Shown: one piece after another, positions 6,151 to 9,165 of the stretch
How the letters are laid out: every line of letters begins with the position of its first letter
Numbering within the stretch: position 1 is the stretch's first letter
Assembly (NCBI GenBank): GCA_964473825.1
Contig: CAYYQL010000051.1
Location: forward strand, 1 to 15,617
Reading direction: 5' to 3'
From: an uncultured archaeon
GTDB taxonomy: Archaea > Asgardarchaeota > Thorarchaeia > Thorarchaeales > Thorarchaeaceae
DNA: 15,617 nt
Notes under the pieces: generated by a model
Database searches by the model: none
Seen by the model: only the letters and a program-made list of their open reading frames with translations
What the model was told of the DNA's origin: nothing
Translations under genes and position numbers: made by a program

Positions 6151-7374
6151 TTGAAATACGAATGCATCCGAGCCAAGTCTATCCTCTCCAAGCCCAGTGT
6201 ATATGACAGCTGGTTTCATGTCACAAGGTCGATGAATGCATACCGTGGCTGTGAATTCGGTTGTATCTACTGTGACGGGATGTCTGAGGGCTACCACGTT
6301 GATGACTTTCTTACCCATGTCAGAGTCAAGACGAATGCACATGAGGTAGTAAGACAGGAGCTCGAAAGAGACGGCTTCATCTCCGAGAGCTCGATGCAAA
6401 CGGAGACTCTAATCCCCTTCTTGGACGACGATGATGCCCAGAAGCTGAAACGGAAACACCCCGTCAAGTACTGTATTGGTGTATCTGGAGGGGTGTCAGA
6501 TGCTTATCAACAGGCAGAGGAGCAGCACAAGGTAACGCGCAATGTGCTCAAGGTTCTACTTGATTTCGGAATGCCTGTGTTCATCCTTACAAAATCAACA
6601 CTCGTGCTTCGTGACCTTGACATTCTTCAGAAAATCAATGAAAGAGCGTTTGCCACAGTTGCCTTCACGATAACGCTGAATGATGAGAATGTCAAGAAGA
6701 TCTTTGAACCAAAGTCACCGACTACTGCGGAACGCTTTGAAGCGCTGAAGCAGGTCAAGGACGTGGGCCTGAAAGGCGGCGTCATGGCCATGCCCCTCGT
6801 CCCCGGCCTAGGTGACACAATGGAGAATATGACTGCACTGGCTAGAAGCACGAAGAAAGCAGGGGGCGATTTCATACAATGGGCAGGGATGACACTGAAA
6901 CCAGGACGTCAGAAGGACTATTTCATGAGAATCATTCACCGAAGATATCCGGACCACTACCCCATGATTCAGAGAATATACCAGAACGATGACCATTACG
7001 GAGAACCTGCTTACAAGCTCCTGCCCTGCAACGTCTATAAACGTGGAAACAAAATCTGCAAAGAGGTTGGCATTCCAGATCGTATGCCAAGACAAACCCC
7101 GCCAGGATATCATCCTATCAATACCCGAATTGTGCAGGTACTGCATGACATATCGTTCTACCGAAGATTTCGAGATGGTGATTCTTGGTATAGAGTAAAA
7201 CCGCTAATGGAAGCAGCAGCAAAGATAATGACTCAAAGAAGGAATCTCAACGAGCTCAGCACTCCTGAAGAGATTCGAATCCTTCTTGATGCCCCACTGG
7301 ATGTCGCAGAAATGATAGCCGAGGTAATAGAGACCGGAACATCGGAATCTCTTGAGGCTCTTCAGGCAGTCTAG
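6151..7374 (+). CDS. Radical SAM protein of the SplB/Rv2578c-like (COG1533) group, with a C-terminal PolX N-terminal-like (HHH_8) helical domain
   Basis: KSIL, MNAYRGCEFGCIYC (CxxxCxxC), VSDAYQ.AE, ILTKS.LVLRDLD.L, FEP, RFEAL, MPLVPGL.D. The C-terminal ~80 aa follow the N..I...L........R......AA..I...A..I.E...TG....LE.L pattern. TTG start after GGAAGG. Confidence 0.9.
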   Translation: MKYECIRAKSILSKPSVYDSWFHVTRSMNAYRGCEFGCIYCDGMSEGYHVDDFLTHVRVKTNAHEVVRQELERDGFISESSMQTETLIPFLDDDDAQKLKRKHPVKYCIGVSGGVSDAYQQAEEQHKVTRNVLKVLLDFGMPVFILTKSTLVLRDLDILQKINERAFATVAFTITLNDENVKKIFEPKSPTTAERFEALKQVKDVGLKGGVMAMPLVPGLGDTMENMTALARSTKKAGGDFIQWAGMTLKPGRQKDYFMRIIHRRYPDHYPMIQRIYQNDDHYGEPAYKLLPCNVYKRGNKICKEVGIPDRMPRQTPPGYHPINTRIVQVLHDISFYRRFRDGDSWYRVKPLMEAAAKIMTQRRNLNELSTPEEIRILLDAPLDVAEMIAEVIETGTSESLEALQAV

Positions 7375-7386
7375 CTCAAGAGATGA

Positions 7387-7740
7387 CCAGTAGATAGGGG
7401 CTCCGTGAACCGAGGAACTAGTTCTTCGCTGTGAGGAGCTCGGAGAACACAAACATACTGCGAAGCAGGATTTCGTGATGTCCACGGAGCTTACCTGGCG
7501 ATTGGAGGAGAGAATCCTTCGAGGGCTACCTCGCTTTCACCTCGATCATTGAGGAGCTGTCGGGTGTCTGTTAGATGTTTCCTCTGACCGGCTAGTGATC
7601 GCCATTTCTATGCAAGAATGCTTGCAAGCATTCCACTGTTGACAAGTCATCATTTGTTTATGAATCATAGGAACTGCGTAACCGAACTCTTTCAGACGCC
7701 TCATGCCCTATAAACAGAGTATCCCTTGAGAGGCAACTGG
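7387..7740 (+). ncRNA. Candidate structured non-coding RNA, unassigned
   Basis: Lies in a 375-nt gap between convergent genes. Shows mutually compatible nested helices, G-U pairs that mostly favour the + strand, and a K-turn-like CCGA/GUGAUG junction. Folded by eye only; see findings. Confidence 0.4.
7616..7633. repeat. Perfect 18-bp palindrome GAATGCTTGCAAGCATTC
   Basis: The sequence is its own reverse complement. Confidence 0.9.
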
Positions 7741-7749
7741 ATCTTAGCC

Positions 7750-9165
7750 TTAGATTTGGACTTGATCTTGTTTTCTCAATAGAAGTATACCCCCATCGTG
7801 GGACTGAATTGCTGAAACATAATGAACAGGAATGATAACCTTAACGCCGCCTTCATCAGGACGACCACCTCTCTGATCTGCATCTTGCCCTGATGAAGCC
7901 GTGGCGAGGAGAGATGCGGGCGCACCTGTGGAATTCCACCGAACGAATGCAGTCACGGCATAGTGATCTGAAGCCGCATCAGCTGGGTCGACATCGACCA
8001 CAGAGGAGTTAACCAGGCCGTCTGTGAAGAAAGAGTTCACAACTATGTAGTCAATCCTGAAAGAAACCGAAGAGTCTTGGTGGCCGTAGGTATGCCCAGG
8101 TTCCGAAGGATTCAGAGTCCTATACACGTCCGTGAAGTTGTGCACTTCTGAAGAACGATTCCCATAGATAGCATCATCCGGAAAGAGCATCATAGTCATC
8201 GGACCGTAGCCAAGCTCCATTCCCTCTGGTGCTAACTCTCCTGTATCAGCGGGTGAGAATGAATTCTGGTCACTCAGATAGATAATAGGTGCCTCACCCA
8301 AAGCATCCATGTAATTGATGATGCCCTCCATCTCTGCCTCCCTGCGCCAGATATTCGTTTCACCGTCGCTAGCCTTCAGGTGGCCTCCAAAGACATGCAC
8401 CTCTGTCCCATTGATGTCCAATACGGCCTCTATGAAGTCGTGGGTGACATAGTAGTCGGACCCGTCATCCATCGGGACCTTCTCAATCTGATTGAACTGG
8501 AGAATGGGGAAACGGCTGAGGATGGCCTCTCCAGTCGTGGAGTATTCCACGTTCTGAGCGCAGTACGCAACATACGGAAAGTCGTCTTCAAAATATGAGT
8601 TAAGCTCGCTTACTGCCGCATTCAAGTCTTCATTCGCATAGTCATCCCAGAGTCCTGTTTCCACTAAGACTAGGATATCTGGGCTCTCCTGCTTCACTAC
8701 AGTTAGCCAATCAGGATTACGACCAGATTCTTTGATATTGTAGACCATGGTCTTAAACAGACCGTCGTAAGGAGGGAGGACATCTTCGACATTGTCAACA
8801 GAGACCTCAAAGCTCCTTCTGTCAAACCACCCAGAGCTGTCGTGGGCCTCAATTCGAAGTGTATGCTTTCCATCCGGGTACTCAGTGGTGTTCCAAGCAT
8901 AGAGATTCGATTTGGTCTTGTTTATCCCATCAATGAAGATTGTTGCACTCAGGTCCTCTTCGTCGATGACAGAAACGTTGATTGTAACTACTCCAGACAG
9001 CGTCGCCCTCGGCTCGGGATTGATGACCTCAATTATCGGCGGTCTATTGCGCTCTTCCTGTGTAGGCGTTGAGGTAAAATGAAGGAATAGAAAGACTGAG
9101 GAAGTAGCTATCAACACGAGTACTAGAACCAGAATGGCCATCTTCTTGGGGTTCATCACGAGCAC
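7750..9165 (-). CDS. Exported or membrane-anchored protein with an Ig-like (Big) domain and an endonuclease/exonuclease/phosphatase (EEP) domain
   Basis: N-terminal KK + hydrophobic helix. Ig-like segment NRPPIIEVINP...WNTTEYPDGKHTLRIEAHD. EEP motifs YNI, DILVLVET, AILSRFP, HLKA, SDQN, RIDYI and SDHYAV. An alternative start is ATG9156. Confidence 0.9.
   Translation of the reverse strand: MLVMNPKKMAILVLVLVLIATSSVFLFLHFTSTPTQEERNRPPIIEVINPEPRATLSGVVTINVSVIDEEDLSATIFIDGINKTKSNLYAWNTTEYPDGKHTLRIEAHDSSGWFDRRSFEVSVDNVEDVLPPYDGLFKTMVYNIKESGRNPDWLTVVKQESPDILVLVETGLWDDYANEDLNAAVSELNSYFEDDFPYVAYCAQNVEYSTTGEAILSRFPILQFNQIEKVPMDDGSDYYVTHDFIEAVLDINGTEVHVFGGHLKASDGETNIWRREAEMEGIINYMDALGEAPIIYLSDQNSFSPADTGELAPEGMELGYGPMTMMLFPDDAIYGNRSSEVHNFTDVYRTLNPSEPGHTYGHQDSSVSFRIDYIVVNSFFTDGLVNSSVVDVDPADAASDHYAVTAFVRWNSTGAPASLLATASSGQDADQRGGRPDEGGVKVIIPVHYVSAIQSHDGGILLLRKQDQVQI

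Follow-up and report, generated by a model that had tools for sequence, protein, structure and literature searches.

The locus and its conservation

The window analyzed here, meaning the whole stretch of 15,617 nt, is an entire 15.6-kb contig from a Thorarchaeota (Asgard) genome bin, for which completeness is 95.7% and the assembly size 3.27 Mb. Two of its genes converge on a gap of 375 nt that runs from stop codon to stop codon, and the gene coordinates bear out what a first, sequence-only reading had said of it, namely that it is the longest gap in the window and is placed between two 3′ ends. The flanking genes end in TAG or TAA and both ORFs are intact, with neither an internal stop nor an in-frame UGA. 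The other genes of the window belong to ordinary metabolism and transport, with no mobile-element genes among them. The locus is organized as follows, the strand given for the core being the favored one:

6151-7374, plus strand: radical SAM gene, spore photoproduct lyase-like (protein-domain search)
7375-7749: the gap between the two stop codons
7375-7393, no strand: spacer past the radical SAM stop codon, poorly conserved (42% identity)
7394-7682, minus strand: conserved non-coding core, 64% identity in the alignment of the two most distant lineages
7691-7749, no strand: spacer past the EEP stop codon, poorly conserved, with deletions in the distant lineage
7750-9165, minus strand: EEP gene, with an Ig-like domain and an endonuclease/exonuclease/phosphatase (EEP) domain (protein-domain search)

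Two side observations concern the flanking proteins. The C-terminus of the radical SAM protein (residues 324-397) gave a weak, sub-threshold helix-hairpin-helix match (HHH_8, E = 0.11). In related Thorarchaeota contigs, an EEP homologue adjoins a eukaryote-type topoisomerase IB gene (Topoisom_I_N, Topoisom_I and Topo_C_assoc domains; L072 4075-6099, L073 5053-6401 and L074 4263-5611), and the same neighborhood also holds a PadR regulator and a methyltransferase.

The convergent radical SAM/EEP pair and its gap are syntenic in three lineages of one Thorarchaeota genus, with a gap of 372-383 nt (372 or 383 nt in the genus's two other species, found by genome search). The few public contigs that carry the same gene pair and gap collapse onto those two other lineages, and the sole find of a genome-contig scan, the MAG TEKIR_12S, is the distant lineage already known; the independent lineages available for comparison are three (n = 3). 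DNA sequencing runs in which the genus occurs include SRR2187629, SRR8186049, SRR31818008 and SRR7614767, along with the JGI samples 3300035158 and the Tekirghiol sediment that yielded MAG TEKIR_12S. When the window is aligned with the distant lineage, four-fold degenerate sites in both flanking genes prove to be saturated (33-36% identity), whereas the gap retains 61-64% identity and includes invariant stretches of 15-24 nt. Full-length comparison of three other intergenic regions from this contig gives 47-52% identity. Because the identity of the gap far exceeds that of the saturated four-fold sites, the gap sequence is under purifying selection. Conservation begins about 20 nt past the radical SAM stop codon and stops 40-65 nt short of the EEP stop codon.

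The element has a single copy in the assembly, as in each genome that carries it, and its invariant blocks turn up nowhere else in the genome more often than expected by chance. A blastn search of 86 genomes of the family gave no match outside the genus. Model R1, a covariance model built on the 151 best conserved positions, was run against the same 86 genomes and against 150 genomes sampled from the phylum, and likewise found nothing outside the genus; two weak R1 matches, located inside an ORF or with broken helices, are chance. Two exact-pattern scans of metagenome contigs gave no match, and retrieval anchored on the radical SAM and EEP proteins yielded either near-identical versions of the three known lineages or loci free of the element. 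In other genera, the radical SAM orthologues have a downstream gap of at most ~110 nt in 26 of the 28 genomes that could be scored, and in no case is an EEP gene found downstream of them. EEP homologues of other lineages (66-70% identity) have a different neighborhood and downstream gaps of 160-175 nt, from which the element is absent. In the data searched, the element is confined to one Thorarchaeota genus.

Coding potential

The first reading had seen no convincing ORF in the gap, and the comparison supports this, with no conserved ORF and no protein-family match. No reading frame across the element is open in all three lineages, indels among the lineages measure 1, 2, 10 and 26 nt, and substitutions show neither a third-position excess nor codon periodicity. 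One minus-strand frame is open by chance in all three over ~28 codons; it varies most at second codon positions and its peptides are unrelated among the lineages. A Pfam search of every open frame in the gap gave no match, and gene callers called no gene in the gap of any lineage. A protein-coding gene or pseudogene was rejected since there is no shared frame, no codon-position pattern and no protein-family match; a decayed protein gene, the finding by which the first reading would have given up a structured RNA, also left no protein-family match. The element, roughly 250-300 bases long, is non-coding.

Consensus structure

All of the stems drawn in the sequence-only reading are present in the sequence. 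The minimum free energy (MFE) of the whole gap is not unusual against dinucleotide shuffles (z = −0.92 on the plus strand and −1.60 on the minus strand). With only the window sequence to go by, the listed stems do not exceed chance; it is the comparison with relatives that shows the element to be real. The shuffling check proposed at the outset found an unremarkable energy for the whole gap as a single sequence. For the three lineages together, the RNAalifold consensus energy of the three-lineage alignment was compared with column shuffles within classes of equal conservation. Domains 1 and 2 (window 7393-7607) gave a consensus z of −5.0 on the plus strand and −5.4 on the minus strand, as against −1.3 to +1.8 by the same method in twenty coding control windows (ten 241-column windows of the flanking genes, both strands). 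The consensus structure signal of block 7604-7692 is not significant. The parts of the element, again with the favored strand, are the following:

7394-7634, minus strand: structured portion (comparative folding)
7400-7490, minus strand: domain 1, closed by the 11-bp helix P1 (7400-7410/7480-7490), which is extended by 7397-98/7494-95 and has two compensatory pairs
7421-7448, minus strand: inner hairpin of domain 1 (7421-28/7441-48), with two compensatory pairs and a 12-nt loop in which UCCUCA is conserved (UGAGGA on the plus strand, 7432-7437)
7458-7468, minus strand: small hairpin CUGC-GAA-GCAG, with one compensatory pair, partly kept in the distant lineage
7488-7502, minus strand: invariant 15-nt inter-domain junction block, AGCTTACCTGGCGAT on the plus strand and AUCGCCAGGUAAGCU on the minus strand, found once in the genome
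7496-7604, minus strand: domain 2, closed by the invariant 6-bp helix P2 (7496-7501/7599-7604)
7505-7511, minus strand: invariant unpaired motif UCUCCUC (GAGGAGA on the plus strand)
7521-7532, minus strand: conserved 4-bp hairpin GAGG-loop-CCUC (consensus fold)
7542-7591, minus strand: long hairpin of domain 2 (7542-48/7585-91 and 7551-55/7580-84), with one compensatory pair and a ~24-nt apical loop that has the invariant stretch 7559-7566 (GTCGGGTG on the plus strand, CACCCGAC on the minus strand)
7616-7633, minus strand: 18-nt palindrome, a conserved hairpin proposed as the 5′-terminal hairpin of the RNA
7648-7682, minus strand: nearly invariant block without significant conserved structure (alignment and consensus fold), with a 5-1-5 palindrome, TATGAATCATA, at 7659-7669

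Helices kept in all three lineages are 7400-10/7480-90, 7421-28/7441-48, 7458-61/7465-68, 7496-7501/7599-7604 and 7521-24/7529-32, together with the long hairpin 7542-55/7580-91. In a curated set of 54 minus-strand pairs, 93% of cells are paired; shifting the partners by 1-3 columns lowers this to 39-50%. Both positions of six pairs have changed with pairing maintained (two each in P1 and the inner hairpin, one each in the long and the small hairpin), a count to be read with three lineages only, which give little covariation power and put formal significance out of reach, and with shared ancestry, which inflates such counts. Structured RNAs typically grow by added hairpins, and the 26-nt insertion of the distant lineage, which adjoins 7599, is a self-contained hairpin. 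Compensated helices and a signal above controls, which together we take to define a structured RNA, are both present, on three lineages only. The element folds into conserved helices, with two multi-helix domains and a hairpin kept in three lineages.

Measured against this consensus, the first drawing holds in domain 1, whose stem and inner hairpins are kept in the three lineages (the small hairpin partly in the distant one). Domain 2 had been drawn with a closing stem at 7496-7503/7597-7604, which survives as the six invariant pairs of P2, and with four hairpins, among which 7521-32 is conserved, 7504-20 is not, and 7540-54 and 7555-93 are a single hairpin. The 18-nt palindrome is there as described, but in the distant lineage it forms a hairpin on the minus strand only. 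The two end-closing stems (7387-91/7736-40 and 7394-99/7706-11), the 3′ arms of which fall in the spacer 7691-7749, are absent or deleted in the most distant lineage, and instead of a ~350-nt molecule closed by them the comparison delimits a conserved core at 7394-7682 with a structured part at 7394-7634. The K-turn also falls, as the sole pattern common to the three lineages reuses nucleotides of a covarying Watson-Crick helix.

Two further pairings deserve mention. CUUCGC at 7423-7428 can pair alternatively with CGGAG, in the inner hairpin, or with GCGAAG (7460-7465); in the window sequence and the sister species each folding precludes the other, and the distant lineage keeps only the inner hairpin. 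CCGA (7410-13) and UCGG (7560-63), both invariant, could form a tertiary pairing.

Strand of the element

In the sequence-only reading, wobble pairs pointed to the plus strand; this is reversed once relatives are counted. In the helices that RNAalifold predicts for either strand alike, the wobble events number 11 in favor of the minus strand (being A-C on the plus strand) and 3 in favor of the plus strand, or ~11 versus 5 with the inner hairpin and the insertion hairpin included. P1 has its wobble at a different position in each lineage and is fully paired (100%) on the minus strand every time, with A-C mismatches at four different positions on the plus strand. The palindrome at 7616-7633 is paired in the distant lineage only on the minus strand, via two G-U pairs. 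For the core 7392-7634, MFE z-scores in the three lineages are −2.44, −1.63 and −4.40 on the minus strand and −1.18, −1.65 and −1.71 on the plus strand; in the sister species both strands fold equally well. The consensus helices are reproduced by the minus-strand MFE structure of the window sequence, and RNAalifold energies do not separate the strands. Due to the asymmetry of wobble pairs and the folding z-scores of the core, we favor the minus strand as roughly twice as likely as the plus strand, a call of moderate strength. Stems drawn on a single sequence had given the wrong strand and the wrong ends, and comparative data corrected both, the strand with the moderate confidence just given.

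Known families and identities excluded

The whole window was searched at gathering score against Rfam 15 (4227 models, including RNase P, SRP, C/D, H/ACA, ribozymes, riboswitches, SECIS and U1) and the region 7250-7900 at E up to 10, with no match in either search; no family fits, including the RNase P, SRP, H/ACA and ribozyme models singled out for checking by the first reading. Rfam searches of the two orthologous loci returned a single chance match inside a coding region. Archaeal RNase P and SRP RNAs are like the element in size (~300 nt), in their multi-helix fold and in having a stand-alone gene, but the gap matches neither model even at E up to 10. Both identities were rejected, as the genome has these genes elsewhere, each above the Rfam cut-off: RNase P RNA at G000:C3:138386-138724 (151.9 bits) and SRP RNA at C2:134441-134749 (97.8 bits), both on other contigs. 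A tRNA/tmRNA scan found none. A box C/D RNA was rejected since the distant lineage does not preserve the C-like and D-like strings (7475-81 and 7584-87 on the plus strand, AUGAUGA on the minus strand). A MITE or other mobile remnant, an option offered in the first reading, does not agree with a single-copy element whose candidate terminal stems are not conserved; a scan of viral contigs gave only chance 15-mer matches. An archaeal SECIS element was likewise rejected, the flanking genes having no in-frame UGA and Rfam no SECIS match. Separately, ARAGORN reports a tRNA-Sec in this genome (G000:C35, near 13546), and selenocysteine is probably in use.

One resemblance deserves mention. Within the junction block 7488-7502, CUUACCUGGC on the plus strand is identical over ten bases to the 5′ end of U1 snRNA of eukaryotes, and the block on the minus strand reads like the 5′ splice-site consensus (CAG/GUAAG). 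We regard this as a coincidence, as there is no Rfam match to U1, the block sits at an inter-domain junction and not at a terminus of the RNA, and the U1 resemblance is on the less likely strand.

The first reading had proposed an unannotated structured RNA outside the known families and a search for homologues across related genomes. Its core idea is supported: orthologous loci were found within the genus, their helices carry compensatory changes, and conservation is accompanied by no coding signal and no Rfam match. This is a real, selected, structured non-coding element without a known family, and it is probably a new small structured RNA.

A predicted small RNA gene and its alternatives

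Block 7648-7682 is conserved without structure, contains a TATA-like core and keeps a constant spacing to the palindromic hairpin, and for these reasons we propose it as the putative promoter and operator of an RNA gene. The TATA-like sequence, TTCATA(A/T)A, lies on the minus strand from 7664 to 7657, within the palindrome TATGAATCATA, and is constantly 22-23 nt upstream of the palindromic hairpin; the last 13 nt of this spacer are not conserved. Archaeal TATA boxes are centered near −26, which the spacing here fits. The core resembles elements found 25-35 nt upstream of the tRNA genes of this genome, without the A-rich upstream part present there, and is nearly palindromic, fixing no direction. 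There is no U-tract terminator after domain 1.

We suggest that the gap holds a minus-strand gene for a structured small RNA of ~240-290 nt. Transcription would start near 7634, ~23 nt downstream of the TATA-like element, and would pass in order through the palindromic hairpin, domain 2 and domain 1 to end near 7392, beside the radical SAM stop codon; the palindrome in the invariant block may be an operator for a dimeric regulator. A stand-alone, genus-restricted, minus-strand structured small RNA gene of ~240-290 nt is thus the prediction that we favor, and we give it about an even chance of being right.

The same strand would be transcribed if the element were a structured 3′ UTR of the EEP/Ig-domain mRNA, co-transcribed with it and acting in cis in stability, 3′-end formation or localization. 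The element lies directly downstream of the EEP stop codon with no strong terminator in between, and the evidence of helices and selection applies equally to a UTR. However, the stop codon and the conserved block are 40-65 nt apart, with poorly conserved sequence in between, a promoter better explains the invariant unstructured block and its TATA-like core, and EEP homologues at 66-70% identity have downstream gaps of 160-175 nt without the element. We consider a UTR of this kind unlikely, if still plausible.

A plus-strand RNA is rather improbable, whether as a structured 3′ UTR on the radical SAM mRNA or as a product of its processing. In its favor, the consensus-structure z is equally strong on both strands, G-U pairs occur on the plus strand in the insertion hairpin and in the inner hairpin 7421-48, and in the window sequence alone G-U pairs outnumber A-C in the helices of the first reading. 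It would nevertheless leave A-C mismatches in P1 and the palindrome hairpin in every lineage, its core MFE z is weak (−1.2 to −1.7), and the plus-strand MFE structure of the window fails to reproduce the consensus. Radical SAM orthologues elsewhere, moreover, are followed by short gaps (26 of 28) and no EEP gene, and no conserved TATA-like element lies upstream of 7394.

Function could also reside in the DNA rather than in an RNA, for example in a cluster of protein sites or in cruciform repeats that form a barrier between the converging transcription units. The palindromes at 7616-33 and 7659-69, structure signals that are symmetric between the strands and a most conserved block without conserved structure would suit such an element. 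The asymmetry of wobble pairs would not be expected for DNA, long-range helices (80-100 nt) and an insertion in the form of a hairpin are features typical of RNA, and the motifs do not recur in the genome; we find this explanation quite improbable. That the gap has no function, being a chance similarity, a decaying gene or a mobile-element remnant, would agree with its unexceptional single-sequence folding energy but is extremely improbable and already largely refuted by conservation, controls and pairing data, as the gap is conserved while neutral sites are saturated, is single-copy with no protein-family match or shared frame, and has a structure signal to which the control windows show nothing comparable.

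Possible function of the predicted RNA

In 2038 long ORFs of this genome, GGAGG/GAGGA-like motifs are ~six-fold enriched at −18 to −9 of the first ATG. The same 2038 ORFs show no TATA-like peak close to their start codons. Because Shine-Dalgarno-like motifs are enriched and there is no such peak near the starts, most mRNAs appear to be leadered. The invariant unpaired UCUCCUC is complementary to the Shine-Dalgarno-type motif in use in this genome. If the element is the minus-strand small RNA that we favor, it may act as a trans-acting regulatory RNA, with unpaired UCUCCUC and UCCUCA pairing with GGAGG-type ribosome-binding sites and the conserved helices supplying stability or holding a protein. 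Regulation in trans by such pairing, a mode known from other archaeal and bacterial small RNAs, is our leading guess, made because the unpaired pyrimidine motifs are invariant and the genome heavily uses GGAGG-type sites; it is a speculative and on balance doubtful one, based on short motifs. A role as a scaffold in an RNA-protein particle is about equally possible, and protein binding or tertiary contact could just as well be the use of the invariant CACCCGAC loop and of the 15-nt junction block.

More tentatively than for the gene itself, we suggest that the element could be the founding member of a new Asgard-archaeal class of structured RNA, ~250 nt long and of two domains, with invariant loops and junctions that would bind protein or the ribosome-binding sites of mRNAs. 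If this is true, it would represent a lineage-specific ribonucleoprotein or a global translational regulator in Thorarchaeota.

Relation to other non-coding RNAs

Archaeal intergenic sRNAs that pair with ribosome-binding sites have examples in Methanosarcina mazei and Haloferax volcanii. The element is like these in being intergenic, with a probable promoter of its own, stable helices flanking pyrimidine motifs complementary to Shine-Dalgarno sequences and a narrow range. It is unlike them in that it has no sequence or Rfam relationship to them and, at ~240-290 nt with two multi-helix domains, is larger and more elaborate than most.

Another comparison is with the orphan large structured RNAs that comparative genomics has brought to light, such as OLE, GOLLD, HEARO, raiA and similar (PMC2864571). 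Like them, the element was found by conservation and covariation in intergenic DNA and is multi-domain with invariant unpaired blocks. Those classes are mostly bacterial and spread over many genera with hundreds of representatives, whereas the element is archaeal, is known from three lineages within a single genus and has no match to the Rfam models of those classes.

A literature search found no study of non-coding RNAs beyond rRNA in Thorarchaeota or other Asgard archaea, which suggests that Asgard non-coding RNAs are little explored. The narrow range of the element, one genus and three lineages, limits the weight that it can bear. Nevertheless, a conserved multi-domain RNA unrelated to any Rfam family would offer an entry point to RNA-based regulation in the closest archaeal relatives of eukaryotes, and the small size of the element suits it to structure probing and pull-downs.
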